From: Candidatus Bathyarchaeia archaeon
GTDB taxonomy: Archaea > Thermoproteota > Bathyarchaeia > Bathyarchaeales > Bathycorpusculaceae
Assembly (NCBI GenBank): GCA_049516875.1
Contig: JBEKSS010000014.1
Span: forward strand, 1 to 64,000
DNA: 64,000 nt
Direction of reading: 5' to 3'
Within the stretch, counting starts at the first letter, position 1. Each line of letters begins with the position of its first letter. The translations under genes were made by a program, and so were the position numbers. This document shows, in pieces, positions 4,807-37,741 of this stretch. Under the pieces are notes generated by a model, which made no database searches, was not told the DNA's origin, and was given only the letters and a program-made list of their open reading frames with translations.

Positions 4807-4809
4807 TTC

Positions 4810-8063: not shown

Positions 8064-9410
<1,347 letters not shown>

Positions 9411-17316: not shown

Positions 17317-17413
17317 TCTTGAACCCCTAGTTTGTCTTCTGTTGCTGTGCAGATTTAAGATTTCTGTGTCTTCTTGAAGGATGGTTGGTTATTGCGTTTT
17401 CTCTAGGTTCTGT

Positions 17414-19837: not shown

Positions 19838-19955
19838 AAAAGACTGACGTGCTGCTAAGAGGGCTGGCGTGTTGGTCGTAACCCGTCATTAGCCTTAGTA
19901 ATTTTTCATTTTGTTGTTTTTGTTCTTCTGGTTTTGTGTTGTTTGGGTTTTCCAT
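19821..19955 (-). CDS. Integrase N-terminal fragment int(N)-B
   Basis: MENPNNTKPEEQKQQNEKLLRLMTGYDQHASPLSSTSVFFEQAS; one base out of frame with integrase B at the T6 run 19836-19841. Confidence 0.65.
   Translation of the reverse strand: MENPNNTKPEEQKQQNEKLLRLMTGYDQHASPLSSTSVFFEQAS
19862..19885 (-). repeat. att copy B: 24-bp duplicate of the rnpB 3' end
   Basis: ggctggcgtgttggtcgtaacccg. Confidence 0.93.
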
Positions 19956-21737: not shown

Positions 21738-21753
21738 CGTGCGCATGCCAAAA

Positions 21754-22410
21754 TCAATTTTTCTTGATTGACTTGATAACCTTGTTTGTCAGTTCTGTAC
21801 ACTGTTTCAACGCAGCTTTGTTCTTTAGGACTTCGCCCTTTTCATCACCTGCTCTGACGTTGACCGCTATGAAGGGAGGACGATCGTGTGAGACTAATGT
21901 CAACCCAAGAGATTCGATATACTCTACAACAGTACGCAGTGTTTCCTTCTTGAATCTGCCCGTGCCTGACAAGGCAAAAACGCAGAAAGGTTGTTGCTTC
22001 GGTAGAAGCTTATAGTTTGGTTCTGCGAAGGTGTGTTTGTAGCCTTTGTGTTTTCGCATATGAACAATTGTGTCCAGTCTTTCCAAGAAAGCTAAGAATT
22101 TTGAGGAAGCCAACAGATACTTGGGGAATATGAACATTAACGCGTCGGCTTTCTTCATCTCTGCGAGAATCTGGTTCAGATCATCTGTAAGGACACATTC
22201 TTCGTGCACACATTTTTCGCAGAGAACGCAAAACTCAATCTTCTTGCTTGCCAATTGGATTATTCGGGACTTGGAACTTGTAGACTCGAGGATAGACTTG
22301 GCTAATGCGTAACAGTTGCCATCGTTTCTGTGGGAGCCCACTATCGCCAGAAGTTTTGTTTTCATAGACATAATTAAGCTGGTTTTCATTAAAGTCTTTA
22401 TTGGTACCAA
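21754..22410 (-). CDS. Flavodoxin family / iron-sulfur flavoprotein
   Basis: IVGSHR..GN, CVLCEKC....C..DD. Confidence 0.85.
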   Translation of the reverse strand: MVPIKTLMKTSLIMSMKTKLLAIVGSHRNDGNCYALAKSILESTSSKSRIIQLASKKIEFCVLCEKCVHEECVLTDDLNQILAEMKKADALMFIFPKYLLASSKFLAFLERLDTIVHMRKHKGYKHTFAEPNYKLLPKQQPFCVFALSGTGRFKKETLRTVVEYIESLGLTLVSHDRPPFIAVNVRAGDEKGEVLKNKAALKQCTELTNKVIKSIKKN

Positions 22411-22791
22411 CTGACGCGCGCGCTAAGTAACAATACGCAGCTTTTGTTGGTCTTTTGTAACAAAATACTGTAACAAAACGCAAAAATCGGGGAAAAACTC
22501 CAGTTTCCAAAAAGTCAATAGAGAGTCCATGCATTTTGGCTTTTTTTCAGACTTTTGTGACAGGAAACAAAACTCCTAGAAATAAGCTTCTTTCTAGGAA
22601 ATAGAATGAACTCTTCAACGTTTCCGACTTAACACCAATTATAACCTTTCTGTGCAAAAGGCATTTTGACAAGTTCACCGCAAAACAGAGGAACTAGACA
22701 AGGATAGAAGGAAATGACGAACAAGGCGATCACGGCTTGGTTGTCTGAGGAGAAGAAACTGCAAATTGGATAGTGCGCACAAAGTGTAGGT

Positions 22792-23582
22792 TCAACTGCC
22801 TTTTTTCAGGAAATCTAGCATCTGCTTCATTTCTCTGTTCTTATCGTTCTCTGTGGAATAGTCTCTGAAAAACTCGAATACAAGGTACTTCAGACTCTTG
22901 CAACGTTTCAATTGGTCTGTTATGAAGCCCAATTCTTGGACTGTTGGCTTATAGTGACCAAACCATTTTTTTCGCGGATCCTAGCGACAGAAAGATGGGC
23001 TGTGCATATTTCATCATTCAAACGAGAAACCCAATCAACAAGAGCTTCCATCTTCCCCTGATTTGACTCCAGAACGTGTCCTATGTCCATGCAGGAGAAT
23101 AGGCTACTGTTATCCATAACCTTTGCATAGGTTCCCAAATTCGAGAATATGCCATTATTACAGTTTTCAACCGTTATCTTGCCAACTCTCTTGATTTCCT
23201 TCCCCATTTCTTTCAATGTTTTGGCTATGCGGGACGAAGTGACGTTTTCTTCTTCAAAGCTCCCCAAATCCGTCTGTATGTGAATGTTGAAGTATTCTGA
23301 CTTGATTCGCGATGCAAAGCTTGCTACCGATAAGATGGTATCATGACTACCTTTTCGGACTCCTTCCCAAGGAGAGTACAAATAGATCGTCTCCCAAGGA
23401 GATTGAACACCTGCCTCTAGAGAGTATTCTTCAAGAGCCTCTAGTATTTTTCCTGTGTCTTCATCTAACCATGTGGGTGTGTCTATTATGATATCAACGA
23501 AATCAAAACTGAGGTTGCCAGCGATTGTTATGCCATTGACGATTGAACCATGTCTAAAAATCACAGGAAACCCGAATTTCAT
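22792..23582 (-). pseudogene. Sugar phosphate isomerase/epimerase TIM barrel, frameshift in A7 run 22966-22972
   Basis: ITVEN, CMDIGH, HLS; the C-terminal WFGHYKP...LVFEFF is in another frame. Confidence 0.7.
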
Positions 23583-23837
23583 CTTGGGTCACGGATACAA
23601 TAGCACGCGTGAATACTTTATAAAATAAACGCGCGCTCTTTTACTTTCCAACCATGATTCAAAAGTGTGTCGTTAAATGGGAAAAGATAACATTAAACTT
23701 ATTAACGATATCCTAAATGCATTGCATTTTAGCGTCTGATACTCAATGAATTTAGTGAACGCACGTTTCTGTCAGCTGGTAGTCTAGTAGGTACGTTTTG
23801 ATTTTGCCCTCAACTTGTGAATCGAAGGACTCGAAGG

Positions 23838-24575
23838 CTAGAGAAAAAAGCGTGCATTCAGTTCTGTTATTGGTAAAAATCTCTGGAATGCTTCTCTGAT
23901 GTCACCGCTGTTTTCCAATTCGTATAGATATCCTAGTGCCCAGTAATCTTCTCCGTCGAAAGATTGATTCAACATTCCCCTAAGGTATTTTTCAATATGC
24001 GTTCCAAGGCACATCGAATTGCAGACGAAATGTAATCCCCAATTTCTTTCGTTTTCACCGACCAGATAAGCGTCGATGTATTGCTTGATTGTACTCGCGA
24101 GTTCCCCATCATTTCTCCAGCTAAGCTGTTTCGTCCTGTCGTCACTAAGTAATTCTAGAGCAATTTCAGTTCCTTTAGAAGCGAAGTTAAGTATTTCATC
24201 AACAGAAGAGCTGTAATCTGAAAGTACCTTAGGTCTATCAAGCTCAAATTCATAGTCTCTTATCTCAAGCTTGTCCTGTTGGGGGTTGACGAGGAATCTT
24301 GAAGACAAGTCAGCCATTGCATCTCGGATTTCCGGTGGGATTTGTGTTTTCTGTTCCTCTGAAAGGTAAATGCTGCGACTTGTTGGTGGATTCATCGAAG
24401 GTATGCTGAGACAGGCGTAGAGCGAATCATCAGGAGTGCGGGGAGATTCGAAGTGGTAAGTCAGGACACAGCCGTTGATCAGCGAATTTCGCCACTTGAG
24501 GACTAATGATCTGAATAATTTGTGCAGCTTTATCTGCATGTCAACTTTGCATTTAAAATCAAAATGCACCCACAA
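23838..24575 (-). CDS. Hypothetical protein
   Basis: 245-aa ORF, no family recognised. Confidence 0.65.
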   Translation of the reverse strand: MWVHFDFKCKVDMQIKLHKLFRSLVLKWRNSLINGCVLTYHFESPRTPDDSLYACLSIPSMNPPTSRSIYLSEEQKTQIPPEIRDAMADLSSRFLVNPQQDKLEIRDYEFELDRPKVLSDYSSSVDEILNFASKGTEIALELLSDDRTKQLSWRNDGELASTIKQYIDAYLVGENERNWGLHFVCNSMCLGTHIEKYLRGMLNQSFDGEDYWALGYLYELENSGDIREAFQRFLPITELNARFFL

Positions 24576-24855
24576 GGCTCTTCCACATCGGTAGCTAGCT
24601 AGTTTCAGCTATAACTTTTCCGCAAAATCCTGTAAGGTTTCCTTGTGTGTCTCCTGTCGCCCCCGTGGCCCCGGGTCCGTGGCCCCCTTTTCTTTTTCCA
24701 TTTTCCTTAGGAAAAATTAGAGGTGCCTCTTTCCCTTGCCCACCCCTTTTGTGCGTGTGTGGGTGATATGGAGAGAGTAGGTAGGTGTGTGCTTGAGTGT
24801 GTGTTAGTAAGAGTCGTAGAGAGTAGTAGAGAGCGCGTGGCGTGGTGCGGCTTGA

Positions 24856-24881
24856 GGGGTAAAGTCTTATCCCAAACCCAA
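24856..24881. repeat. Island palindrome family, copy 6 (reverse)
   Basis: GGGGTAAAGTCTTATCCcaaaccca. Confidence 0.8.
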
Positions 24882-24913
24882 TTCATAGTTGACTGGCAGG
24901 GTCTGAAGGAGAC

Positions 24914-25219
24914 GTGGGCGTTTCGACAGGAGCACATTGGAAACGAAGGCTAATCTCTCTCGTCTGGATTCTTTTGCCATTTTTTTCGTATGGTTTGTAT
25001 CTGACTTGGTTTGATGGGGGCGTTCTCGAGGGGATGGAAGCTGAATCTGTTGTTGTGTATGTTCCCCTTGCCTTTCTGCTTGCTTTTCTTGATTTGATTG
25101 TCAATAAGTGGCTGCTACTGATGCTGTATTACGTGTTGTCCTTTGTAGCGCTATTCGTCGGTTACTACATTTATGACAAACGCAGGCAAAGGGTGCGCAC
25201 GCTACCGCAAAAAACCTGA
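24914..25219 (+). CDS. Small membrane protein
   Basis: Three hydrophobic segments and a basic tail. Confidence 0.6.
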   Translation: MGVSTGAHWKRRLISLVWILLPFFSYGLYLTWFDGGVLEGMEAESVVVYVPLAFLLAFLDLIVNKWLLLMLYYVLSFVALFVGYYIYDKRRQRVRTLPQKT

Positions 25220-25280
25220 ACATTATTGTTACCGTCTGCTTTGTTCGTCGTTCATCCATTTTGTGACTATTTCTTCTGCA

Positions 25281-25326
25281 TTGGTTTGGTTTGGGGTAAA
25301 GTTTTATCCCAAACCCAAACCCAAAA
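25281..25326. repeat. Island palindrome family, copy 7 (longest arms)
   Basis: ttggtttggtttGGGGTAAAGTTTTATCCcaaacccaaacccaaaa. Confidence 0.9.
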
Positions 25327-25365
25327 ACAGAAAAGTGTGTGTTACGAAGTTATGAGTGACGCGGA

Positions 25366-26052
25366 ATGAAACGAAAAGTCGTTCTTGTGCTTTGCATATT
25401 GCTTGTGATGGTGATTCTAGTATCGTCAATGGTTTACTACTTCTGGTACGTGCCTTATGTGCACGTTCCACAAGCGCTCGGGCGGCAGTATATGTCGGTG
25501 TCTTTCTGGCCAGAATTTATTGGAGATATCAAAAGCAGCCCGACTCCCCTCCACCTAAACTATGAAGGGAATGCGATGAACGTAACTTATGTCTCAATAG
25601 AAATCAATGTGACCAATAGCTACTTCCAACCTGTATACATAAACTTCAGCGGTTTTGACGTAGTCTGGCTCATATATAAAAGGACGGTAACTGACCCTTC
25701 AGATGTCCTGAGTAACAGAGACTCTCTCGTTTGGGGGGCTTACTATTATTTGGTTTATGAAGCAATATCGAACCCACGTAGAGGTATCCACGACTTCGCG
25801 GGAGACGATCTAGAATTCTATTCAGCAAATAGAAACAACACAAATTTCCAGACAGACATACCGAGCGGTAGCAGATCACAGTACTATGGGTACGCGTTGT
25901 TCGATGATCACATGGGCGGCGAGTGGTATGGCCAATATTATTCAAATCCTGAGTCACTCGTATCTCCAGGAACGTATTTCATGTACTGCATAATCTACGA
26001 CTTTTCATGCACTCTACAAAACATAACCATAACTTCAGCAGCCCTACACTAG
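25366..26052 (+). CDS. Membrane-anchored hypothetical protein
   Basis: N-terminal signal/TM; Ig-like ending VSPGTYFMY. Confidence 0.7.
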   Translation: MKRKVVLVLCILLVMVILVSSMVYYFWYVPYVHVPQALGRQYMSVSFWPEFIGDIKSSPTPLHLNYEGNAMNVTYVSIEINVTNSYFQPVYINFSGFDVVWLIYKRTVTDPSDVLSNRDSLVWGAYYYLVYEAISNPRRGIHDFAGDDLEFYSANRNNTNFQTDIPSGSRSQYYGYALFDDHMGGEWYGQYYSNPESLVSPGTYFMYCIIYDFSCTLQNITITSAALH

Positions 26053-26092
26053 CAAAAACGATCCTGTATTGAGACTCAGCGCACGCGCTATC

Positions 26093-26368
26093 TTAGGGTT
26101 CGACTCTTGTGGTATTCGGGAAATTAAGGCTGGCGTGTTGGTCGTAACCCGTCTTTAGTACAAGTAATTCTGGTTTTGGTGTTGTCGATTGATCTTTAGC
26201 TTGTGGTTGGTCTTTGGTTTCGGGTTTGGTTTCTTCATTCATACTTTTTGCCCTTTCTAGGAGTTTGGGGATTTCTATTTCTGTCCTTAGTCTCCCGTGT
26301 TCTATTTCGTCACGTGTTCTTTTTTGGGTTTCGTTTGTTTGATTTGTCATGTATATCCTCCAATTCAC
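26093..26368 (-). CDS. Integrase N-terminal fragment (ATG at 26350) containing LKTGYDQHASL
   Basis: Reads the att core in the same frame as integrase D; no catalytic part follows. Confidence 0.7.
   Translation of the reverse strand: MNWRIYMTNQTNETQKRTRDEIEHGRLRTEIEIPKLLERAKSMNEETKPETKDQPQAKDQSTTPKPELLVLKTGYDQHASLNFPNTTRVEP
26126..26156 (-). repeat. att copy C
   Basis: aaggctggcgtgttggtcgtaacccgtcttt, one mismatch to rnpB 3' end. Confidence 0.93.
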
Positions 26369-26602
26369 CGCGTGCGTCGGTTTTTCTTTTTAACGTTTGG
26401 TCTCGCATGTACATCAACCCACATTCCTAATCGTTTCATTGACGAGGCGACAATATGCCTTTCCCGACTGAGCAACTTTTTAGGACTGCGGGGAGCGCGC
26501 GCTGTGCGGGCGACTTGTTGCTCTGTTGGATTTCCGCGCTACTTTACTGAGCGTTAAAACGGCGGGTGTTTATAGCGTTCTGTTGTTTACTGTTGTTTGT
26601 TG

Positions 26603-26647
26603 TTTGTTCTGTTGTTGTTTGTTCTGTTGTTGTTTGTTCTGTTGTTG
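26603..26647. repeat. Tandem repeat, 3 x TTTGTTCTGTTGTTG
   Basis: Three exact 15-bp units. Confidence 0.9.
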
Positions 26648-26897
26648 TTAGCGTGTGTTAGTTAATTCGTTCCTGTTAGCGAGAGTATAGCGAGTTGTTT
26701 GTGGCGTTATTGTTGCTGTTCCTTTGGCGTTCGATTGGCGTTTTGCCTATTTTTGTAGCGCGCGCGACCTTGTTGGATATTTTGTATCAGTAAAAAGTTG
26801 CGAAGGAGGCGCACCCTGAGCGGAGCGAGGGGGAAAGGCTTATGTCGCCGAGGATTTCGAAGCGCGCGCTATAATACTTTTGCGCGCGATTTCTTGC

Positions 26898-27488
26898 TCA
26901 TTTGAGCAGTTGGGATATTTTTGACAGTTTTTCCTGAGTCTGGTTTACTGAATCCACGATTTGTCGGTATTGTTTTGGATACTTCTTTGCGATTGTTATG
27001 AACTGTTTTACCACTTGGGGGGTGAATCCTGTGCGCATTTGGTTGGCTAGGATGGAATCGATGTCGGTTTGTTCTATTTTTCCCTTGGTTAATGCTGCGA
27101 GATATAATACCTCGAACGCGTTTTCTCCGAGAATCGGTGTGGTTTCTATGAGAAATTGAAGGTTAATGTCTTTTGGATAAAATTCACGTGCTCTGATAAG
27201 AATTGTTTGGGGATCTGCTCCTCTGCTTATTGCGAGGAATATGCCTAGTTCGGTAAGCCAGAAAGACGGGTATTTTGTGCCGTGATATTCTTTAGTTGTT
27301 ACGCTTTTGATCAGTCCTTTCTTCTTCAGTGTGTCGAAAGCAATCCATGTGGATTTGTACTGCCCGTTGATTTGCTTCATAGTTTCATTAATGGTTTGAG
27401 CGTTGTTCCTTGCCAGACTCAGAATTACACGCTCCTGCAAGGGAGGAAAGTCACGTGTCTTCCTATTTTGCTTAGACATATGTCTCAC
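26898..27488 (-). CDS. Winged-helix domain protein, divergent from rep operon
   Basis: YKSTWIAFDTLKKKGLI...FWLTELG. Confidence 0.7.
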   Translation of the reverse strand: MRHMSKQNRKTRDFPPLQERVILSLARNNAQTINETMKQINGQYKSTWIAFDTLKKKGLIKSVTTKEYHGTKYPSFWLTELGIFLAISRGADPQTILIRAREFYPKDINLQFLIETTPILGENAFEVLYLAALTKGKIEQTDIDSILANQMRTGFTPQVVKQFITIAKKYPKQYRQIVDSVNQTQEKLSKISQLLK

Positions 27489-27617
27489 TGAGCTTAGATA
27501 TGTTATATCTCACCATATATAAAAGTTCTTGCCTAAAACTACTCGGTGAGAAAAGTTGTTTGAAAATTCGAAACGGAAAACTGCGCACGCTGTGCTCCCT
27601 TTGGGAGTTGATTTTCT

Positions 27618-27818
27618 ATGGCTGAGGGTAAGCTGCTGAACTGTATCTTCTGGGATGGTGTCGCTTGTAAGCATCGTAAGTCTGAGACGGTGAACATGAT
27701 GGTTCGATGTTGGAGCTGTCGCCAGTTCAAGCGGTTTGTGAGACAAATGGATGATGCTGATGCGAAAATCATGGAGGAAAATGAGAAGAGGCGTTCGGAA
27801 GGTGACGGTCTTGGTTGA
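27618..27818 (+). CDS. Small Cys-rich protein upstream of rep
   Basis: C..C...CWSC; GGGAG before ATG; overlaps rep start. Confidence 0.6.
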   Translation: MAEGKLLNCIFWDGVACKHRKSETVNMMVRCWSCRQFKRFVRQMDDADAKIMEENEKRRSEGDGLG

Positions 27819-28836
27819 CGCTGCTGTCCTCCGATTGGTTCGCTATTTTCTGGTTCTCCTTAGGTTGAACCCTCAGTTGATGGAGAATGCCTATTGGTAT
27901 CTGCCCGTTCTGGACGATGGCCACGATAATTATGCGCAGGTGGGTCATAGCCCTAGCGTTGTAACTCCTTACTGTTGCTATTTCAGGGGTTGGAAGGTCT
28001 GTCGTGAAAAGGACTTGCATAAGGGTGTGGTTGTGAACGGTGTTGATTTTACGGATAAATCGGCGGTTTCCCCTTCACATCTCTGGTGTAAGAATTGGCA
28101 TTGCCCTAAGTGTTTTCTTCACGGTGCTTGTGTCGTTGGTGCCCGTAGGATTGAAGACCGCCTGACTGCCTTCGTTGAGCGTGGACTTGGTAAGGTCGAG
28201 CACGTAGTTTTTTCGGTTCCAAAGGCTTCTCAGGACTTACCATTGGAAGTCTTGTTCAAGATGCTTCCGTCAGTGGCAAAGGACAGGGGCGTGTCTGGTG
28301 TCTCAATTTTTCATGGGCGGTACATAAATACTGAGCTTGGCGGCCTTGCATGGAGAGCACATTTCCACGTGTTGGGTTTTGTTGACGGTGGCTTTTACCG
28401 TTGCAGGACTTGTGAACATGAGCGCAGTGCATGTGCTAGCTGTGACGGTTTCAAGGGTTGTGAAGTTCGAGGCTTTGCCAAAGACGGGTGGATTGTCAAG
28501 GTTGCTGATGAACGTTTGAGCATCTTTGGTACGGCGTGGTATCAGTTAAATCACCATACGGTAAAGCTCGGTTTTCGCAGGGTGCACTCTGTCAGATGGT
28601 TTGGTAAGTGTGGCAACAGGATGCTAAAATCCAAGTACCATAGGTCTGGTGCTGGTTGCTCCTGTCCCGTTTGTCGGGCTGCTGGTCACGAGTCGGTAAT
28701 GGATAATGGCGGATACTGGGGTAAACGTTTGCCTGATGATGTCTCCGATCCGCGTTACAAGTCTGTTTACGCTGTGCCTGATTTGGATGAAGAGGGCTTG
28801 CCAAACTTTGCCGATGGAGGTGATAGACTTGGTTAA
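27751..28836 (+). CDS. Rolling-circle replication initiator (HUH endonuclease); start probably ~27802
   Basis: Motif I HVVFS, motif II HFHVLG, motif III YQLNH, plus several CxxC. Confidence 0.75.
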   Translation: MMLMRKSWRKMRRGVRKVTVLVDAAVLRLVRYFLVLLRLNPQLMENAYWYLPVLDDGHDNYAQVGHSPSVVTPYCCYFRGWKVCREKDLHKGVVVNGVDFTDKSAVSPSHLWCKNWHCPKCFLHGACVVGARRIEDRLTAFVERGLGKVEHVVFSVPKASQDLPLEVLFKMLPSVAKDRGVSGVSIFHGRYINTELGGLAWRAHFHVLGFVDGGFYRCRTCEHERSACASCDGFKGCEVRGFAKDGWIVKVADERLSIFGTAWYQLNHHTVKLGFRRVHSVRWFGKCGNRMLKSKYHRSGAGCSCPVCRAAGHESVMDNGGYWGKRLPDDVSDPRYKSVYAVPDLDEEGLPNFADGGDRLG

Positions 28837-28987
28837 GGTCCAAATATGTCCTTTCGATGGCTTACCATGCGAGTTTGTGGATTCTTGCGATGATGCTATG
28901 GTCTTGCTCTTAGAGCGTGAAGGTCTCAAAGGCTTCGATACTGAGAATGGTGAACATTGTTCACGCGCTGTTATTCGGCTAAAATGA
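28829..28987 (+). CDS. Small Cys-containing protein downstream of rep
   Basis: GGAGGTGA before TTG; CPFDGLPCEFVDSC. Confidence 0.55.
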   Translation: MVKVQICPFDGLPCEFVDSCDDAMVLLLEREGLKGFDTENGEHCSRAVIRLK

Positions 28988-29029
28988 GTTTCGTACCAAG
29001 CGCGCGCTCTAATCTTCTCTTTTTTTCTC

Positions 29030-29824
29030 TTAGCGCGCCCACAAGCGCCATTTTTTGGTTTCAGACAAAATAGTTTTGCCCAATTCAGTAAAGTAGTATT
29101 CTGGCTGACCGCCATACACTTTTTTCCTGAAGGGAATCGGCTTTGCACTTCTAATGACTCCGAGATTGATAAGGTCACGGGCGATTCTTCTCAAGTCGTT
29201 CTTCTCACAGCTTTCATGGTAGAGACCATACTCTCCTTTGCGGCTTGAATCGAATGCACATAAGTCAAAACCCCTATCAACATATCCTCGGACTACTTCC
29301 AAAAATGAGATCATATCAATGTCCAATGCGCCCAAAACATTTCTGACCATTAAGTCTCTCGTTAAGTCCACTTGTTTTTCGGCATTTATCACAAGCTTTC
29401 TTATTTTGTCTCTTGAATTTTTTGCATTCTGTGTGGAAAATTTGTTCCATCTGAGGTGCCTAATATCAAAAGAAATATTTTCTGACTTTTCATCCCTTAC
29501 GATGATTACCTCCTGTGGCAGACGGATGGCATGAGCTATGCCCAGTTCGTACATAACATTTGGATTTGGTCGGTCTTTTTCATCATTCGAAATATCGAAT
29601 AACAACAACTTTGCTCTGCCGACTCCTTCCAAAACATCAATAGGAATCGAGTCGCTAACAAGTCGCTCTTTTGTACGATATGGTTTCAGACCGCATGAAA
29701 GAATAGCAGGTTTAAAGATATCTTTCCATCGTTGTTCGAATTGAGAGGAGAAAGGCATTGCCACAAATACTTCCATTGTCCTATCGAATGACCTGAACAA
29801 GTCCATGTAAGTTTTTGGGTACAT
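29030..29824 (-). CDS. Nucleoside 2-deoxyribosyltransferase/TIR-like domain with wHTH-like C-terminus
   Basis: VFVAMPF, DIS....NPNVMYELGIAHA, FDIRHLR. Confidence 0.75.
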   Translation of the reverse strand: MYPKTYMDLFRSFDRTMEVFVAMPFSSQFEQRWKDIFKPAILSCGLKPYRTKERLVSDSIPIDVLEGVGRAKLLLFDISNDEKDRPNPNVMYELGIAHAIRLPQEVIIVRDEKSENISFDIRHLRWNKFSTQNAKNSRDKIRKLVINAEKQVDLTRDLMVRNVLGALDIDMISFLEVVRGYVDRGFDLCAFDSSRKGEYGLYHESCEKNDLRRIARDLINLGVIRSAKPIPFRKKVYGGQPEYYFTELGKTILSETKKWRLWAR

Positions 29825-29907
29825 TCCTATTGCATCATTCCAATTTCTTGTACCTTACGTGGAACTTTCCAAACAAATTGGTTTCACCAGACATTTGATT
29901 GAGTGCC

Positions 29908-30501
29908 TTATTGTTCTTGTTGGATTCTCAGCCAGTCTTTTATCAGAAGCTTGAACCTTACTATCTCATCATTGTCCAGTTCGCAGCTATGGGCGATAAT
30001 GTTTCTAATGTTATTGAATTGACAGAGTGTGTCTTGAACTGCCTTTCTGCTTCTGAGAATATCTGCAAAGTCATTCCAATTTGAGTTGAATATGTCGGTT
30101 AACTCACCGAAGTTTGTATAGGATAAGTTATCATCAGACCGAATCGACATTGCAGTTTCTCTTTCCTTTGCTTGCAGTTTCTTGACGTTATCTTTTATAA
30201 CCACTGGAACTTTTTTTTCCCACCAATCGGTGCCGTGTTTTTCTCTCAGAACGTCAGTGATGAGCTTACGTACACTGTTCTCCATGCTGAAATATAATAC
30301 ATAGAAATCTGCCATTTTGCGAGCTTTCTGAAGGATTTCGAGTTCAAATAGGTCGGTGTCTACTAGTTCGTCTTTCTTCATTTGTTGTGAATGCCCGATT
30401 TCGATACCTGACCTTTCCAATTTCGCGAGTTCACCTTCAAGCATCAAGTTCTTCATTCCAAAAACTAGGATTTGTTTGTTTCTTTCATTCTCGTCTTTCA
30501 T
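29908..30501 (-). CDS. Swt1-like HEPN domain protein (predicted RNase)
   Basis: ENSVR, WW, FGEL..I, RNIIAH (RxxxxH). Confidence 0.8.
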   Translation of the reverse strand: MKDENERNKQILVFGMKNLMLEGELAKLERSGIEIGHSQQMKKDELVDTDLFELEILQKARKMADFYVLYFSMENSVRKLITDVLREKHGTDWWEKKVPVVIKDNVKKLQAKERETAMSIRSDDNLSYTNFGELTDIFNSNWNDFADILRSRKAVQDTLCQFNNIRNIIAHSCELDNDEIVRFKLLIKDWLRIQQEQ

Positions 30502-31112
30502 GTTAGGAGGTGCTCCTTCAGAGCTTTGAAGATAGCATTGAACACTTCGACGTCGTTTGTTGCAGGAAGGTTGAGATTTATCGTATAGGATATTCCGAGT
30601 TTCTCAATCGGTTGCTGCTTCGACTTTAATTGAGGCTCTAACGGTTCCTGTGAAACAGCTGACGTTGCTTCTGTTATTTCTGTTGTCTCAAAATCAGCTA
30701 AGCTGCACAGTGCTAAAAAAGTACTCACCACTTTAGGCGTAACCTTATCGTCTGAGGGAGTGCCTAGAACTGTATTCAGTTTGGCGATTATTTCATCTCT
30801 TTTGAGCTTTTGTGCGTACTCATTAGCGGCAAATATCTCTTTGTAAGCCTTCTTCACTTGTTGAGCCATTACAATTTTGGATTTCATTGGGTCGCGGTAC
30901 TCTCTGTAGGCAGGGGTTGGGCCATTAGCTTCATCAACAAATCCGAGTCTCTTAAGAAGTGCGATAAAAGGTCTAAAACTTGATGACTTCAAACCGAGTT
31001 TTGTGTATATGAAATCGACTGTGATTTTGGGTGGCACCTGTGCTTCCGTTATTCTTTTGAAAAACTCTTCTATTCTACCGTAAGCGTCCACATAAGGAGG
31101 ATAAGTGACCAA
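30498..31112 (-). CDS. DUF5343-like protein
   Basis: PY...LKRLGFVD..G.PT..Y..YR, YTINLNLP...FNAIFKALKEHL; ATGA overlap with HEPN gene. Confidence 0.75.
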   Translation of the reverse strand: MVTYPPYVDAYGRIEEFFKRITEAQVPPKITVDFIYTKLGLKSSSFRPFIALLKRLGFVDEANGPTPAYREYRDPMKSKIVMAQQVKKAYKEIFAANEYAQKLKRDEIIAKLNTVLGTPSDDKVTPKVVSTFLALCSLADFETTEITEATSAVSQEPLEPQLKSKQQPIEKLGISYTINLNLPATNDVEVFNAIFKALKEHLLT

Positions 31113-31497
31113 TTTTATTCTCCGTTATCTCGTTAGTGAACTAACACATAAGAGGTTTTTGGTCAGTATGTCTTTTGTTCAATTTTGTGGTCTGAAACCA
31201 CGTTCATGTAGTACGCGACGTCGGTTCTTTGAGCACATCGTCTGGAACGTGCGCGCGCGCATTGATGTTGGGTCGATTCGTAAGTTTCATAGAAAATGAG
31301 CAATTAGAAGCGTGGATGATGGCGAAAATGGAAAGATTGATAAAGGGGCAGCGAGTATTTGTGAGGAGTTTGTTTCGTCAAGGGTGACGCTTGCATGGAC
31401 GCTGTCTTCGCGGCCTAGGCCGTTATTGCACTGTGTTGGTAGCCTAGTCTATAGGTCTGTTTGGCGCCACCAATCTTGAAACCAGGAGGTTTCCATT

Positions 31498-31767
31498 TTG
31501 GGTTTGATTTCAACTTTGAGAGATGAGTTTGCGTTTCTTCGCGGCAACATTCTGGTCATGATGACCAGTTGGTTAGTGATGAACTTTGCTGGCGCTGTTC
31601 CCAACACTTACTATTCTCTCTTTGTCCTGGGGTTAGGCGGCACGCCCTTCATCATAGGCTTAATGCAGTTCTTTTCATACCTGGCTTTAGCTTCGACGCA
31701 GTTTCCAGGGGGTTATTTGGCAGACAAGCGCTGGAGAAAGAACCTCGTGGTGAAGCGCGGGCTTTAA
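31498..31767 (+). pseudogene. MFS transporter N-terminal fragment
   Basis: Ends just after motif A (GGYLADKRWRK) at AAGCGCGGG. Confidence 0.75.
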
Positions 31768-31779
31768 AGGGGAACACTG

Positions 31780-33063
31780 ATGAGCAAGAATAAGTCAAGA
31801 GATGAGCTGGACCCTAAACGAAGATCTCATTGGTTTTCAAGTATTTCTTTGAAGGCGGGGTTCTCAGGCTTGTCCTCCCAAGTGTATATCCTAGTGTTTC
31901 TGGGCTTTCTGTTCTCACTTGGAAATAACATTGCTTTCCCCTACCTTGCCATGTTCTTGGCAGGAAAAACTCAAAACGGGGGTTTAGGGTTTGCCTCGTC
32001 ACTCGTGGGTTTGATGCTTATGACAGGAGGATTCACTTCCACCTTTGCACTCCTGTTCACTGGAAGCTTGTGTGACAGATTTGGCAGAAAAATAATGATG
32101 ATGTCCTCACTGATTCCACAGATTCTGCTGACCATCGGCTTTGCATACGTTCACGCATATCTCGAATTCCTGCTGCTGTATGCAACACTTGGAATTGTAA
32201 TGGCCTTTTTCAACCCAGCTTACGGTGCCATGATCGCGGATCTCGTCCAGCCAGAAAGAAGGGAACAGGTCTACGGCCTAAATTACATGGTAGGCAACGT
32301 TGGTTTTATGGCTGGATTGCCCATCGGGGGTTTAATTGCAAGCATGAGTGGCTTCTCTGTGCTATACTTCTACGCTGCCATTTTTGTATCCGCAGGGGCA
32401 GCTGGCCTTGGTCTACTGATCAAGGAATCTAAGCCTCTTGAGGTCGCTAAGGAAAAGTTTTTTTCCGATGTTACCCCGATCTTTAGAGACAGAGTTTTCA
32501 TACTGTTTTGTTTCATGGGAGCCTTGACAATTGTCGTTTACTCACAACTGTACAGTTTGCTATCCGTCTACACGGAGTACCTTGGCTTTGAGCCCTACGT
32601 CTTTGGCTTTCTCTCCTCAATAGCTGGTGCGATGGTGGTGACCCTCCAAATCCCAATCAGATTGGGAACTGTGCGAATAGGTCCGACAAAAGCATTCATA
32701 ATCGCTGAGACACTCTTTGGTGCGGGATTAATCTGTTTAATGTTTGCTGCGAACTTTTCCCAATTCTTAGTAGCCATTGCAATTCTGACCATTGGAGAAA
32801 TAATCTTCTTCCCTGCAAGCTCAGCTTTTGTTGCTAATCTTGCTCCAGCAGATATGCGGGGAAGATACTTGGCTCTGATGGGACTATTCTTTGGAATAGG
32901 AGGTGCAACAACAGAACTGACGATCTTCAGTATTTATGGATTGTTGGCTAACAAAAGCTTGATCTGGGGGATTTGGGGAACGCTTGGATTCGCGATTCTC
33001 CCTGGCTATTTGATGTTATTCAAGATGGCTAAGAGACACAGATCAATTCCGACGCGGCCCTGA
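31780..33063 (+). CDS. MFS transporter
   Basis: GSLCDRFGRK, about 12 TM segments. Confidence 0.92.
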   Translation: MSKNKSRDELDPKRRSHWFSSISLKAGFSGLSSQVYILVFLGFLFSLGNNIAFPYLAMFLAGKTQNGGLGFASSLVGLMLMTGGFTSTFALLFTGSLCDRFGRKIMMMSSLIPQILLTIGFAYVHAYLEFLLLYATLGIVMAFFNPAYGAMIADLVQPERREQVYGLNYMVGNVGFMAGLPIGGLIASMSGFSVLYFYAAIFVSAGAAGLGLLIKESKPLEVAKEKFFSDVTPIFRDRVFILFCFMGALTIVVYSQLYSLLSVYTEYLGFEPYVFGFLSSIAGAMVVTLQIPIRLGTVRIGPTKAFIIAETLFGAGLICLMFAANFSQFLVAIAILTIGEIIFFPASSAFVANLAPADMRGRYLALMGLFFGIGGATTELTIFSIYGLLANKSLIWGIWGTLGFAILPGYLMLFKMAKRHRSIPTRP

Positions 33064-33198
33064 GTCAAGGCTAGTCATCTATGAAAGGTGCTGGAACCCT
33101 TAACCTATTATGTGGAAACTGCAATGCGCGCGCGTTAGAAAGCGTTATATGAAAATGAACTCGATTAAAAGTCGAGGATAGCGCGGGCGACATTTCGG

Positions 33199-33780
33199 GT
33201 GGAGGGGCACAATTTGAGACTTAACTATTTAGGTTTTATCGGAGGCATATTGGCTTTCATCAGCTTGGTGTTACCGTGGTGGGCTATGAGCATTTCGGGT
33301 TCAGCCATGGAAATTAACGTCTCTGACGAGGTTACTCTGTACCTATACCAAACGAGAGTGACCATAATAGGTTTATCAGTATCCGCTTCAACGAATCTTC
33401 CTTGGTATTGTTCGATTGCCTTAGCATTTGTGGTGTTAGGCGGCTTGCTGGGCTTGGCAGGTAGTGTCATTGCTAATGGGAGAAGGATTGTACTTTCACT
33501 TGGCGCCATACTTGCCTCGTTTTCGGTTATCATATTCGCTGTAGGATTGCAAAACCAGATTTCAAATGGGTCTTTGGTTTCGGGTTTGCCAACAGGAGTA
33601 GGTTTGTTCTCCAGTGGTGCATACGGCTATGGAATGGATTACTCGTCGTACCTGTCTTTCGGTTTTTGGCTGGCCTTGGTTGCCGCGATTATAATGTTTG
33701 TCGCACTAACGAGAGAGCGCATGCTAGAACCCGCTGAGACAATAATACCACCTCAACCTTCTCCCCCTGCGCCGACGTAG
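33199..33780 (+). CDS. Membrane protein
   Basis: Four TM segments, LPWW, GFWLALVA, Pro-rich tail. Confidence 0.75.
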   Translation: MEGHNLRLNYLGFIGGILAFISLVLPWWAMSISGSAMEINVSDEVTLYLYQTRVTIIGLSVSASTNLPWYCSIALAFVVLGGLLGLAGSVIANGRRIVLSLGAILASFSVIIFAVGLQNQISNGSLVSGLPTGVGLFSSGAYGYGMDYSSYLSFGFWLALVAAIIMFVALTRERMLEPAETIIPPQPSPPAPT

Positions 33781-33897
33781 AATCGCGCGCGCTGTTGTTG
33801 TTTTGAGTTTTTGCGAGTTGGAGCGCGAAGCGAAGCTGAGCGCGACATTGTGGTCAGGAATGACATTGAATAGAAAAAAAGGTGGGCTGTTTGTGTC

Positions 33898-34812
33898 TTA
33901 TTTGCGTTTTCGGAACATCATTATATTTTGGGGCGTTGTCAGAATGTATGTCCATCCGTTGTCTATTAGTTCGCCTGCTTCTTTTTCGTCTTTGGCTATT
34001 GCATGGTGGTAGTTTTGGCTTTCTTCGTCAAATTGAACTATGTGAGTGTAAACCATTGTTGAGTTTATGTTTCGGTGTCCTAGTCTTGCTTGAACTTCGA
34101 TTAGGCTTTTGGTTTCGTTATAGAGACGTGTGGCGTGGTAGTGTCGTAGAGTGTGGAAATGTATTTGTTTGAGTCGTGGGTTGTTTAGTTTTTCAGCGAG
34201 GCGTTTCTTTTGATAATTGAACATGGTCCGAGTGAAGCCTAAGCGGGTGTTGCTGAATATGTAATTGTTTCGTTTCGGTAATGTGTTGAGTCGTGCAAAT
34301 AGCTTAGCTGAGATTTTTACTTCTCTCGGTTTGCATCCTTTTTCAGGGTTGTTGCATTTGAGTGTGTTTTTTTCTTCGTCTATGTCTGTCCATTTGCATT
34401 GCCATAGTTCGCCTATTCTGAAGCCTGTTTCTTTGAGTGTTTGGAGTGCAATGGAGACTTTTTTGCTCGTTCCGCTTATGAGTGCGTCTATCTCTTTTTC
34501 TGTTGGAACGAATGGGAGTGTTTCATTTTTGGGATAGAGTGGTGGTGTCCATTGGATACCTTTCATTTTGGCGTATTCGTTGTAGGTGAAAACTGCTAGA
34601 TTCTTGTGTCCGTTGGACCATTTGCCGTTTCTTTTTATGTAGAGTTTTACGGCTTCGGGGTCTGCTAGGTTTACGTTCTCTTTTATCATGTGTCGTAGAA
34701 TCTTGTATTTCGTTTCGATGGTTGCGTCTGCGAAGGCTTGTTTTTCGCAATGTATCATAAACTCTGCGAGGTCTGTGTTTGTGATGACGTCAGAGCAGGC
34801 GGGTTCCTTTGA
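33898..34812 (-). CDS. Tyrosine integrase D, catalytic part int(C), frame open back through the att core
   Basis: ETGFRIGE, PEKG, HTLRH, LGHR, TMVY; upstream in frame KAGYDQHASLSKEPACSD, first ATG at 34758. Confidence 0.92.
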   Translation of the reverse strand, partial: SKEPACSDVITNTDLAEFMIHCEKQAFADATIETKYKILRHMIKENVNLADPEAVKLYIKRNGKWSNGHKNLAVFTYNEYAKMKGIQWTPPLYPKNETLPFVPTEKEIDALISGTSKKVSIALQTLKETGFRIGELWQCKWTDIDEEKNTLKCNNPEKGCKPREVKISAKLFARLNTLPKRNNYIFSNTRLGFTRTMFNYQKKRLAEKLNNPRLKQIHFHTLRHYHATRLYNETKSLIEVQARLGHRNINSTMVYTHIVQFDEESQNYHHAIAKDEKEAGELIDNGWTYILTTPQNIMMFRKRK

Positions 34813-34846
34813 AAGGCTGGCGTGTTGGTCGTAACCCGCCTTTTGT
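34813..34846 (-). repeat. att copy D, the 3' end of the intact rnpB
   Basis: Identical to 4867-4900. Confidence 0.95.
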
Positions 34847-35133
34847 TTTTTGTGGCATTCGGCTAATCGGGCTACCCGCGCCTTCCGGTAGATTCTTCAT
34901 CGGCGTCTGTTTGCCCTTTCCACTTGCAGGACGGCCGTTTCACCGTTTCGCACCCTGCATTCTCGACAACTTAGCATGTGTCATCGGCATATGCCGGGCG
35001 GACGTTTCGTTTCTGCTCCGTAGCCAAGGTTCTCACCTTACGCCCTTGCAGGCGTTGCAATTCTACGCGTGGGCGGAGTTTCCTCAAGCCTTCCAATATG
35101 AGGCTCGAAAGCCACACACCAACTCGCCAGCCC
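34814..35133 (-). ncRNA. rnpB: RNase P RNA
   Basis: GAGGAAACUCCGCC (35085-35072) pairs with ACAAAAGGCGGGUUA as P4 with bulged U; P1 GGCUGGCGAGUUGGU/ACCAACACGCCAGCC; P2 UGUGGC/GCCACA; about 320 nt. Confidence 0.95.
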
Positions 35134-35157
35134 AACAGTAACTATCACATCAGTCTC

Positions 35158-35172
35158 CAATAAGAATTTTGG
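35158..35172 (-). promoter_or_regulatory. Candidate BRE/TATA for rnpB
   Basis: CCAAAATTCTTATTG about 25-35 nt upstream of P1. Confidence 0.5.
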
Positions 35173-35300
35173 CACCTATGTACTTCCTGACTTATAGTCC
35201 GAGAAAATGGCATATTGAGTCAAGTTGGAGAAACGGGGGTCGCACGCGCAACCTATTTAAGAATCAAGGCGCACCACACCGATGATCTGGTGCACTAATC

Positions 35301-36686
35301 ATGAAAAGTATGACACGATTAGTCTTGGGCGTTGTTCTTCTCGCCGTCTTCATCTCAACGTCATGCATTCCGTTCGGCTCCGCCGCGACGACAGGATGGA
35401 GTCAGACATACGGAGGCTCTGGAGACGACGAAGCCTATTCAGTCGTCCAGACCAGCGACGGAGGCTACGCATTGGTAGGGTACACGAACTCTTCCGGCGC
35501 GGGCAGCTACGATTTCTGGTTAATCAAGACCAACTCTTCCGGAGGCATGCTGTGGAACCAAACCTACGGAGGACCAGGTGACGATGAAGCTTATTCAGTC
35601 GTCCAATGCAACGACACGGGATACGCAGTAGCCGGGTACACGAATTCTTACGGTATCGGTGAAACCAATGCTTGGCTGGTTAAAACTGACTCTTCTGGAA
35701 ACATGCAGTGGAGCCAAACGTACGGGGGAAGAGCGGAAAACATCGCATACTCTGTAATCCAAACAAGCGACGGAGGCTATGCGTTGGCAGGATACACAGA
35801 TTCCTTCGGTGCGGGCAGCTTCGACTTCTGGCTTGTCAAGACCAACTCTTCCGGAGGCATGCTGTGGAACCAAACGTACGGTGGGACAGGGGACGATGAG
35901 GCTTCCTCCGTAATCCAGACCAGCGACGGAGGCTATGCGTTGGCAGGATACACAGATTCCTTCGGTGCGGGCAGCTATGATTTCTGGCTGGTTAAAACCG
36001 ACTCCTCGGGAAACATGGTGTGGAGTCAGACGTACGGAGGCTCAGGGGACGATGAAGCTGGCTGGGTGATTCAGACCAGTGACGGAGGCTACGCTCTAAC
36101 CGGGCTCACAAACTCTACTGGAGCGGGCAGCTATGATTTCTGGCTGGTTAAAACCGACTCCTATGGAACGTATCTGTGGAGCCAAGCCTATGGAGGAGCA
36201 TACGACGAAGTAGCAAACGCGTTAGTTCAGACCAGCGACGGAGGCTATGCCCTAGGAGGTTTGACAGGTTCCTACGGCGCCGGCGACATTGATTACTGGC
36301 TCGTCAAGACCACATCTTCCGGAAGCACGCAGTGGAGCCAAACCTACGGAGGATCAGATGACGATGAAGCGTATTCCCTAGTCCAGACAAGCGACGGAGG
36401 CTACGCGTTAGCCGGATTCACAGCTTCCTACGGCGCCGGCAGCTATGACGCCCTTCTAGTCAAAACCGACTCCTCAGGAAACAGTGTGATGCCACAGTCG
36501 CCACCATTCTCCATCCCATATGCTGCCATAGTGATAGTGTTGATTATAGTGGTCATAATAATAGTGGTAGTGGTCATAGCCCGCAGCAGGCGTTCCAGAT
36601 CCGACACAAGCACCAGTCAACAGTACCCGCCCACAAGCCCTGAAATGAAACCGACACAAGAGACGCGCGGGGCGCAACCAAGCTGA
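35301..36686 (+). CDS. Secreted beta-propeller repeat protein with C-terminal TM
   Basis: About seven WSQTYGG...QTSDGGY...DFWLVKTD repeats. Confidence 0.9.
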   Translation: MKSMTRLVLGVVLLAVFISTSCIPFGSAATTGWSQTYGGSGDDEAYSVVQTSDGGYALVGYTNSSGAGSYDFWLIKTNSSGGMLWNQTYGGPGDDEAYSVVQCNDTGYAVAGYTNSYGIGETNAWLVKTDSSGNMQWSQTYGGRAENIAYSVIQTSDGGYALAGYTDSFGAGSFDFWLVKTNSSGGMLWNQTYGGTGDDEASSVIQTSDGGYALAGYTDSFGAGSYDFWLVKTDSSGNMVWSQTYGGSGDDEAGWVIQTSDGGYALTGLTNSTGAGSYDFWLVKTDSYGTYLWSQAYGGAYDEVANALVQTSDGGYALGGLTGSYGAGDIDYWLVKTTSSGSTQWSQTYGGSDDDEAYSLVQTSDGGYALAGFTASYGAGSYDALLVKTDSSGNSVMPQSPPFSIPYAAIVIVLIIVVIIIVVVVIARSRRSRSDTSTSQQYPPTSPEMKPTQETRGAQPS

Positions 36687-36785
36687 CAACAGGTTCTCAA
36701 AAAGGTTAGAGTTGATTCAAACCTCGCCGTTGTGGAAGCCTTATTTTCTGGCTAGCCCAACATAGGCCTGCAGGACTGTTCAAAC

Positions 36786-37373
36786 ATGTCCAAACGTGTC
36801 ATCCTCGTGACTGGGACGCCGTCCGTCGGAAAAACCGTTACGGCACGTCTGCTCGCGTCCAAGCTCGACGCATTGTACGTCGACCTAACCGATCTCGCCC
36901 TGAGAAACAACCTGGTTCTGGGCAAGGACGAGAAAAGAGACACTGTCATCATCGACGAAAGGAAGATGCGACGGCGAATCAGTCAGATTATCGAGAAAAC
37001 GGGAAAGAACGAAATCGTGGTCGATGGACACTACGCCGTCAACGTCGTTCCACAGAAACTCGTGACTCTCGTGTTCGTGCTGAGACGTGACCCTGTTGAA
37101 CTCCGAAAATTCATGGAACAGCGCGGTTATCCGGAGCCGAAACTCGTGGAGAACCTTGCCTCAGAAATACTCGACGTGTGCCTCGTAGACGCTTTAAACG
37201 CTGGATATGAAGGGAGAACCTGTGAACTGAATGTTACGGGCAAGAAAACAGAGGAAACCGTCAAGGCGATGCTGGAACTGATGGCCGATCCCAGCAAGTG
37301 CGGCGTGGGCGTCGTGGATTGGCTGGGCAAACTCGAAAACGAAGGCCTACTCGACGAGTACCTGAAAATCTAA
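36786..37373 (+). CDS. Adenylate kinase, AK6/Fap7 type
   Basis: GTPSVGKT, VVDGH, RGY...K..EN..SEI. Confidence 0.88.
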   Translation: MSKRVILVTGTPSVGKTVTARLLASKLDALYVDLTDLALRNNLVLGKDEKRDTVIIDERKMRRRISQIIEKTGKNEIVVDGHYAVNVVPQKLVTLVFVLRRDPVELRKFMEQRGYPEPKLVENLASEILDVCLVDALNAGYEGRTCELNVTGKKTEETVKAMLELMADPSKCGVGVVDWLGKLENEGLLDEYLKI

Positions 37374-37378
37374 CCGGT

Positions 37379-37741
37379 CTACCGTAGGCTTGAGGATATC
37401 TGCCTCTTCGTGAGCAGCGTGATTTTCCTTCGGTTTGCGTAGGATTTTGCGTGGTCGCTGAACTTTTCGCCCACTATAATGGGGCTCGACAGCCCCACAT
37501 CCTCAGAAGCCTTGTCAATGTTTATTATGACGTTGACGCCTATGGTCCTGTTCCAATCTCTAATCCAGACTCCCTGCTCAACACGTCCCTTCTGAACTAT
37601 CAAATCAAACTTACTTGAAGTCCCGCTGAAACCCTCAAGCGTCGTAACGTTCTGCTGCATCTTGTAACCCTCCTTCTTAAAATAATGCACCGCCGCCTGA
37701 ACCAGAGCTGATTTCGGTTTGGCTTCTTGCTCGTTGCTCAT
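37379..37741 (-). CDS. Mrr-like restriction endonuclease-fold protein
   Basis: G.SG....FDL, FS..AKSYA....ITL. Confidence 0.65.
   Translation of the reverse strand: MSNEQEAKPKSALVQAAVHYFKKEGYKMQQNVTTLEGFSGTSSKFDLIVQKGRVEQGVWIRDWNRTIGVNVIINIDKASEDVGLSSPIIVGEKFSDHAKSYANRRKITLLTKRQISSSLR

Follow-up and report, generated by a model that had tools for sequence, protein, structure and literature searches.

What occupies the interval between two direct repeats, 8,687 bp apart, in the first 64,000 nucleotides (nt) of contig JBEKSS010000014.1 of a Candidatus Bathyarchaeia archaeon, and is it still able to move? This whole stretch of DNA is the window analysed here, and a sequence-only reading of its letters had proposed that the interval is a rolling-circle element, either an integrative plasmid or a reduced virus, whose excision would rebuild a 379-amino acid (aa) integrase. 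The follow-up indicates that positions 26126–34846 probably represent a plasmid-like element of 8,687 bp in its integrated form, in the genome of a Bathyarchaeia archaeon, with a self-split integrase and the RNase P RNA gene as its target. Beyond the sequence-only reading, it adds this target, an apparently XerA-like self-splitting integrase distinct from those of the SSV type, a replication protein (Rep) that seems to be of the SNJ1 RepA type, and the membership of a large family in Bathyarchaeia.

Attachment Sites and the RNase P RNA Gene

The two repeats reported earlier are present as 34-nt stretches at 26126–26159 and 34813–34846, identical at 32 of 34 positions (94%) with a perfect 26-nt core (AAGGCTGGCGTGTTGGTCGTAACCCG) and a start-to-start distance of 8,687 bp. 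The core occurs four times in the window, always on the plus strand, at 4867 (attachment site (att) A), 19860 (att B, one mismatch), 26126 (att C), and 34813 (att D); a shuffle control gave 0 in 100 shuffles, and no further copy lies outside the window in the 2.43-Mb genome. A complete archaeal RNase P RNA gene is recognised by Rfam at 34820–35127 on the minus strand (RF00373, 196.6 bits over a threshold of 84, model positions 1–288 of 288) and is single-copy in a scan of the organism's own genome, and ARAGORN finds 0 tRNA genes in the window.

The right attachment site, att D, comprises the RNase P RNA's final 27 nt (34820–34846) and 7 nt past the RNA end. In the covariance-model alignment these 27 nt take in a segment that lines up with the consensus ACAGAAGGgGGcUUAc, together with the 3' strand of the terminal helix, which the 5' end closes; the two features are presumably CR-V and P1. 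The left site, att C, is composed of the 26-nt core and an 8-nt element-specific arm. The identity between the two sites ends directly after the core, where att C continues as element sequence and att D as genuine RNA sequence, and therefore the crossover must fall inside the core. Integration is targeted to the RNase P RNA gene, at its 3' end; since the element lies 3' of this gene on the same strand, the integrase gene's C-terminal portion, int(C), begins within the RNA gene.

The Split Integrase

Joining the ends in silico on the minus strand (26350 to 26126, then 34812 to 33898) gives one open frame of 379 aa, in which 75 codons of the N-terminal part, int(N), are fused to 304 codons of int(C), exactly as had been predicted; the frame is open with either att copy retained. 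In the integrated state int(N) (26126–26350, minus strand) runs from the ATG at 26350 into att C and its frame stops at 26093, and int(C) (33898–34812, minus strand) holds the whole catalytic domain in a frame open to 34896, inside the RNase P RNA gene. The attachment site codes for residues 64–75 of the rebuilt protein, so that attP lies within the integrase open reading frame (ORF) and the gene is split by integration, which is the layout of the SSV type.

Alignment to the archaeal XerA structures 5hxy and 4a8e places the catalytic residues in GFR207IGEL, KGCK236PR, H295TLR298H, LGH321, and VY330TH; the R, K, HxxR, H, and Y residues listed in the sequence-only reading are thus intact and follow one another in the C-terminal domain in the order that defines tyrosine recombinases. 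The same two structures are the closest solved relatives of int(C) (E 2.3e-11 for 5hxy), which matches Pfam family PF00589 (Phage_integrase) with an E value of 5e-24. The best NCBIfam model is that of archaeal XerA (NF040815), with 99.3 bits under a curated cut-off of 220 bits, and by these sequence comparisons the integrase appears to be XerA-like and not an XerA orthologue.

The layout is of the SSV type, but neither the sequence family nor the tRNA target of that type is found in the window element. The integrase matches PF00589 alone, with no match to PF16795 (Phage_integr_3) or PF07935 (SSV1_ORF_D-335) even at E<=10, while the SSV1 integrase used as control matches them with E values of 1.5e-61 and 2.6e-34, respectively. 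A BLASTP comparison of the two proteins gives E 2.1.

The Rep Protein and the Presumed Replication Module

The Rep operon, the divergent winged helix-turn-helix (wHTH) gene, and the cargo genes that had been described between the repeats are all recovered. Rep (27751–28836, plus strand) is a 361-aa protein resembling HUH rolling-circle initiators and carrying three Cys clusters. In an alignment of 30 family members these clusters are invariant, as are E150-H151 (motif I) in VEH(I/V)V.SVP, H204xH206 in PHFHVLGF, and Y264 together with H268 in GTAWYQLNH. Its assignment as a rolling-circle-type protein, made earlier on inspection, is borne out by a profile comparison (hhalign) with the SNJ1 RepA family, that is, 22 homologues of the protein annotated in records as 'rolling-circle replication initiation protein RepA' of the haloarchaeal virus SNJ1. 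The probability is 97.8% (E 7.2e-13, 156 columns), and all four motifs (Zn-finger, motif I, HUH, and Tyr) are in register; against SNJ1 RepA alone it is 84%, and against the Rep of pC194, a bona fide Rep_1 protein, 50.7% with HUH in register. Both the order of the HUH and Tyr motifs and the profile homology thus correspond to SNJ1 RepA-like initiators, and a rolling-circle-type HUH protein of the SNJ1 RepA type is the supported, if sequence-based, assignment. The neighbours of Rep in the ESM Atlas include Rep_1 and IS91 Zn-domain clusters (score 0.96). Searches of Rep in PADLOC, in PDB by profile, and by tblastn on PLSDB plasmids and INPHARED phages gave no match.

A small Cys-rich ORF of 66 aa (27618–27818, plus strand) lies just upstream of Rep and overlaps its start, and a homologous ORF is found in the same place in 5 of 9 units of the family. 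Divergent from this operon is the gene of a putative wHTH regulator of 196 aa (26898–27488, minus strand), whose match to a helix-turn-helix (HTH) regulator family of PHROGs is weak (E 7.8e-4). Between the regulator and int(N), the non-coding region 26351–26897 is a candidate replication origin. It contains inverted-repeat arms at 26439–26463 and 26829–26854 and, at 26597–26649, three overlapping 23-nt copies with a 15-nt spacing; the arm motif GACAATATGCCTTTC is found again beside att B and at four unrelated loci (L026, L111, L127, and L137). In a DNA fold of 26400–26900 a long-range stem forms with a z-score of -1.24, which is not significant.

The inverted-repeat pair brackets an insert of variable length, 365 nt in the unit between att C and att D, 110 nt in that between att B and att C (20006–20030/20141–20166), and about 30 nt in abundant relatives, where it is seen as contig joints. 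The pair is a candidate origin or regulatory hairpin.

Taken together, these features suggest the following cycle. The free form would be a circle with one intact 379-aa tyrosine-recombinase gene carrying attP at codons 64–75, and recombination by the integrase would take place between attP and a 26-nt stretch of the same sequence in the 3' end of the host's RNase P RNA gene. The target sequence would include, besides 7 nt past the RNA, the 3' strand of the terminal helix and a conserved single-stranded segment, and the RNA gene would stay whole because the element brings an identical 3' end. After integration the integrase gene would be split, with int(N) bounding the element on the left and int(C) on the right, in the 'suicidal' SSV-type topology. 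Replication would be of the rolling-circle type, begun by the HUH Rep, probably at the repeat-rich region 26351–26897, and placed under the divergent wHTH regulator. Present-day mobility would require a source of whole integrase.

Relatives in Other Bathyarchaeia

The Rep family is large: with the cut-off at E<=1e-3 a full HMM scan gives 1,733 clusters, and 349 remain when it is lowered to E<=1e-30; the named carriers are nearly all Bathyarchaeia. Rep is present in 24 of 201 genomes of the host order, the window's own included. The 76 near-length homologues are all without names. A Rep on an 11,971-bp contig (P0001) is 83% identical to the window protein.

Other assemblies supplied 158 Rep-bearing loci (78 genomic and 80 metagenomic), and in 101 of these Rep is followed downstream by a convergent integrase. 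The 5' end of this integrase directly adjoins the 3' end of an RNase P RNA in 23 loci, including the window's own DNA (L103) and the near-duplicates L112 and L113, and in 11 loci it adjoins a gene for tRNA-Arg, -Thr, -Pro, -Gly, or -Ala; the remaining convergent integrases stand at a contig end (22) or abut nothing nameable (45). No convergent integrase was found in the other 57 loci, many of which are short contigs. The spacing can be tight, with 224 bp between Rep and integrase in L128. These loci bear on the possibility that Rep is an IS91-type rolling-circle transposase and the unit a transposon, the repeats and the split integrase being derived from something else. The Rep family shows weak similarity to Zn_Tnp_IS91, and PMC6563490 cites homology between the SNJ1 RepA family and IS91 transposases. 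The recurrent convergent integrase is at odds with such an origin, as are the site-specific repeats at RNase P RNA or tRNA genes in the loci examined further, a hallmark of integrase-mediated insertion, and the fact that the two Rep copies of the genome each lie within an att-bounded unit; a transposon is therefore very improbable.

The reading frame across the repeats was controlled in 17 independent RNase P loci with a second att, with at least 20 aa on the N side and at least 280 aa on the C side as cut-off. Joining the repeats rebuilt an ATG-started integrase frame in 8 of 17 loci, compared with 0 and 1 of 17 when the junction was shifted by 1 or 2 nt. Among the tRNA-targeting relatives, 9 of 11 rebuild frames of 325–395 aa, one gives 288 aa, and one (L046) fails; their units measure 4.1–7.9 kb, with a lower limit of 4,128 bp for the family. 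Arrays with internal att sites, which carry int(C) only, are found also in L112, L154, L158, and L162. A large element family, undescribed in the literature searched, is thus present in Bathyarchaeia.

In the host family, the survey covered one genome per genus and 28 genomes with an RNase P RNA gene besides the window's, of which 22 loci had at least 1,200 nt to judge. Right after the RNase P RNA gene a full integrase is found in 3 of the 28 and a fragment in 2, and in one further genome a divergent integrase lies about 400 nt off. The neighbour on the 5' side of the RNA is syntenic in 17 of 18 unoccupied relatives; that on the 3' side is not.

Two further loci are worth describing. Contig C1 of genome G211 (L216) holds a second, sub-threshold RNase P RNA-like stretch (83.5 bits), at the end of which starts an integrase 48% identical to the att B type; this stretch may be an element-borne or duplicated RNase P fragment. 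In the window's own genome, contig C11 (L183) carries at 3781–10795 another element of this family, oriented the other way. This 6,998-bp unit has a 17-nt direct repeat at 3781 and 10779, int(C) at 3858–4703, Rep at 8388–9341 (minus strand), and a wHTH gene at 9690–10295 whose product is 61% identical to the 196-aa regulator of the window. Its attachment site is located at the 3' end of a 639-aa ORF, where neither Rfam nor ARAGORN places an RNA gene.

The Tandem Array

The element is the RNase P-proximal member of an array, with four att copies accompanied by integrase pieces where they are expected, and this array holds at least four insertions of this kind. Att A (4867–4900, plus strand) is the same as att D over 34 nt; on its left is a broken int(C) (3846–4806), which shows that an older unit runs off the contig start, and on its right begins unit A–B. 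This unit of 14,993 bp (4867–19893) has its own split integrase, rebuilt as 316 aa with att at codons ~5–13 and about 30% identical to that of unit C–D; att is read in it as RVTTNTPA vs GYDQHAS. Its cargo looks metabolic (a GH1 beta-glucosidase, a GNAT protein, a Pab87-type beta-lactamase-fold protein, and an ABC-2 transporter), and no Rep was recognised in it. Att B (19860–19893, plus strand) is flanked on the left by the intact int(C) of this second integrase lineage (18950–19837) and on the right by the 32-aa int(N) remnant of unit B–C (6,266 bp), which keeps the conserved inverted-repeat motif and has lost Rep and int(C). Unit C–D is the sole one of the array in which int(N), int(C), Rep, the small ORF, and the regulator are all intact. 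It may be the newest unit, as the sequence-only reading inferred.

Joining the int(N) at att A or att B to the int(C) at att D is also in frame and gives 354 and 338 aa, respectively; an open integrase frame would therefore also arise in larger composite circles. Two lineages of about 30% identity share the RNase P attachment site in different frames, and since the hybrids are in frame, whole arrays might conceivably move together.

The G+C content of the array is 0.40–0.47, compared with 0.46–0.48 in the large contigs of the genome, and that of the right flank, 0.51–0.53, is clearly above it. The far (downstream) border of the array was not located, as the window begins at the contig start and downstream synteny is unconserved among relatives.

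Integrated State and Mobility

An assembly or binning artefact, in which the repeated att sequences had mis-joined unrelated contigs, could be envisaged in a metagenome-assembled draft of 20 contigs with 5.4% contamination, and assemblies often break at the RNase P gene. The independent data make it hardly credible. Logan contigs of four runs from other samples show the same integrated junctions and cross att C with 0 differences, an independently assembled JGI contig of 14,471 bp (L103) spans att C through att D, and complete chromosomes of relatives, L068 and L031 among them, have this arrangement too. Logan assemblies use a 31-nt word, and the 26 nt shared by the C and D cores are shorter than this.

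Several results nevertheless weigh against an integrated, plasmid-like element with a functional cycle. The circle junction (34812 to 26160) and a C-to-D skip are both absent in the Logan contigs of the four runs over 17500–37400; as such contigs drop rare variants, a missing circle junction or emptied site there says nothing either way. No free circle was found, none of the 80 metagenome loci having terminal overlaps of 15–200 nt, nor did a contiguous intact att-carrying integrase gene turn up away from RNase P. The genome encodes elsewhere no whole integrase of the C–D lineage able to drive excision in trans, and the N-terminal 63 residues of the rebuilt integrase are of low complexity and unconserved in relatives. 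As for replication, Rep reaches no threshold in Pfam, PHROG, NCBIfam, or PDB-sequence searches; Rep_1 (PF01446) is hit weakly by 2 of 30 family members (best E 0.015) and gives no match with the window Rep. Finally, the closest int(C) relative (L137), whose int(C)–RNase P block is 90% identical to that of the window in DNA and 95% in protein, is paired with a Rep of 43% identity.

This last locus also speaks to whether the int(N)/rep block and int(C) with att D belong to unrelated elements, which would have refuted the sequence-only reading. An unrelated origin is not upheld, since L137 shows one family; a common history of both ends is nevertheless unproven. The two ends of unit C–D may have different histories, and from the sequences they would be exchangeable modules of one element family and not parts of unrelated elements.

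Two joints in run X3 were set aside because one side has fewer than 31 letters: 19885 to 34810 (depth 154, side 21), which has the depth of another organism, and 20167 to 33795 (depth 23.9, side 30), which lies at the short shared GCGCGCGCTGT motif.

The unit might instead be a dead relic, that is, a fixed genomic island kept only for its cargo, with an inert split integrase and no helper. Integration splits the gene by design, and according to the part of PMC8371274 available, truncated suicidal integrases are inactive in vitro and excision requires an external whole integrase; no intact integrase paralogue is present in the genome. The neighbouring units have decayed, as seen in the broken int(C) left of att A and in unit B–C without Rep and int(C), and the integrated form alone is seen in the four samples. 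On the other side, no stops or frameshifts interrupt either half of the integrase, the wHTH gene, the small ORF, or Rep, the 26-nt cores are identical, and contigs cannot show rare excised forms. In addition, L137 has an int(C) 90% identical in DNA, whereas the flanking gene of its host has 66% identity, which implies that the int(C) lineage moved between hosts recently. A relic is thus possible but rather unlikely, and an integrated copy of a plasmid-like element with a self-split integrase accounts for the locus with good confidence.

Cargo Genes and Viral Hallmarks

The cargo of unit C–D lies between Rep and int(C). A 264-aa protein (29030–29824, minus strand) matches PHROG 3634, a family of unknown function, and in the ESM Atlas it has CAP12/Pycsar TIR-like effector clusters among its neighbours (score 0.91), a lead only. 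It is followed by a HEPN_Swt1 protein (29908–30501, minus strand) and a DUF5343 protein (30498–31112, minus strand), encoded by genes with a 4-nt overlap and matching the PADLOC candidate defence components PDC-M34B (E 2e-44) and PDC-M34A (E 5.4e-56), respectively. The adjacent A (DUF5343) and B (HEPN) components that make up PDC-M34 are therefore both present, and the pair can be regarded, by these matches, as a defence-like candidate system. On the plus strand follow an 89-aa fragment resembling the middle of a major facilitator superfamily (MFS) transporter, a probable remnant (31498–31767), an intact MFS_1 transporter of 427 aa (31780–33063), and a hydrophobic 193-aa protein without family match (33199–33780), probably a membrane protein by sequence inspection.

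These genes bear on the choice between integrative plasmid and reduced virus that the sequence-only reading had left. The provirus of a small archaeal virus that has escaped recognition, whether pleolipovirus-like or of another kind, with its structural genes among the unannotated ORFs, would agree with the fact that the closest characterised relative of Rep belongs to the virus SNJ1, that SSV-type splitting was first known from fuselloviruses, and that several ORFs are without family, including the 193-aa membrane protein. This protein is, however, unconserved in other units. Over nine units, Rep (9/9), integrase (9/9), and the small ORF (5/9) are all that is conserved, the divergent regulator occurring in several unrelated versions, and the minimal units of 4.1–4.9 kb leave no room for a structural module. 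As had been noted earlier, no capsid or packaging gene is recognisable, by Pfam or PHROGs, so that the genes expected of a provirus are not seen; no IMG/VR contig encodes a relative of Rep. The PHROG matches in the unit are those of the integrase, the regulator, and two unknown-function families on the 264-aa cargo protein. A provirus is consequently improbable. The plasmid half of the earlier alternative is favoured over the viral half, and the best reading is that of an integrative plasmid, which corresponds to what PMC6563490 terms a 'cryptic integrated element'.

Genomic Surroundings

Beyond the right end of the array, a 461-aa protein with six tandem repeats of 156 nt (52 aa) and a hydrophobic, probably membrane-spanning tail is encoded at 35301–36686, between the RNase P RNA gene and an AAA_18 kinase-like gene. 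The orthologue of this kinase-like gene starts about 60–100 nt from the 5' end of the RNase P RNA in about 10 of 18 unoccupied relatives, which makes the repeat gene a probable insert at the opposite side of RNase P. The motif GGGGTAAAGTCTTATCCCAAACCCAA and its variants, of 26–32 nt, occur in both orientations inside and outside the array (24856–24881, 25293–25318, 7650–7681, 7864–7901, and 938–966).

DNA of the host is found in 24 runs from peat and wetland metagenomes. In runs X6 and X7 a far more abundant relative, with a contig depth above 1,000 compared with about 5–7 for this organism, covers 34764–37400 with many base differences over the RNase P gene and the right flank; it also covers parts of 18.8–25.5 kb and not the interior of unit C–D.

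Comparison with Known Systems and Significance

The element shares with SSV1 and the other suicidal (type I, SSV-type) integrases of Sulfolobales and Thermococcales, such as those of pTN3 and pT26-2, the attachment site inside the integrase ORF and the location of int(N) and int(C) at its two ends. The position of att is nearly the same (annotated at about codons 64–78 of 335 in SSV1, 64–75 of 379 here), and in both cases insertion takes place at the 3' part of a stable RNA gene that is rebuilt. In contrast to the SSV1 integrase, the protein belongs to another sequence family (PF00589 vs PF16795/PF07935), its target is the RNase P RNA gene and not a tRNA gene, and its host is a member of the Bathyarchaeia. 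In the available part of PMC8371274, suicidal integrases are described as the PF16795 families (SSV, pTN3, and pT26-2), one sequence family of Sulfolobales and Thermococcales with tRNA genes as main targets; 'RNase P' and 'Bathyarchaeota' have 0 occurrences in that part.

Small size, bounding by an integrase, and lack of a capsid gene are also features of the cryptic integrated elements of Thaumarchaeota. Among these, the available part of PMC6563490 reports NitAQ6f-E2, with an SNJ1-type rolling-circle endonuclease, and NitEve-E3, with a split SSV1-like integrase, and has 0 occurrences of 'RNase P'. Unlike these two, the window element combines Rep and self-splitting integrase, uses an RNase P RNA attachment site, and belongs to a large family. 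With SNJ1 RepA and the Rep_1 plasmids such as pC194 it shares the same order of Zn-finger, motif I, HUH, and Tyr motifs; compared with SNJ1 RepA, the identity is 19% over 156 aligned columns of a 353-column profile and the window Rep has two extra Cys clusters, and unlike SNJ1 and pC194 its carrier is an integrative element, neither a virus nor a free plasmid. Genomic islands and prophages at tRNA and tmRNA genes likewise have a tyrosine recombinase at the conserved 3' part of an essential stable-RNA gene and form tandem arrays at one site, but here the target is the catalytic RNA of RNase P. In the literature searched, outside subscription journals and supplements, neither attachment sites in the RNase P RNA gene nor rolling-circle plasmids of Bathyarchaeia were found to be reported; the available part of a paper on the Bathyarchaeia virome (PMC10541130) contains no 'rolling', 'HUH', or 'RNase P'.

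The self-splitting layout is now seen in an XerA-like integrase clade, in peat-dwelling Bathyarchaeia, with the catalytic RNA of RNase P as target, and offers a natural system for how an integrase changes its target when the attachment site is part of its own coding sequence. At the same time, 1,733 clusters of 'hypothetical' proteins can now be read as rolling-circle Reps, and a family of 4–9 kb replicons with defined attachment sites would provide starting points for genetic tools in a class of archaea that is abundant worldwide and has none. It may be proposed, tentatively, that the XerA-like integrases of Bathyarchaeia evolved the self-splitting layout independently of SSV, pTN3, and pT26-2 and switched between tRNA and RNase P targets, that arrays may co-move, and that unit C–D is still an active rolling-circle plasmid. 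If this last point were true, the element would be the first replicon in hand for the uncultivated class Bathyarchaeia.

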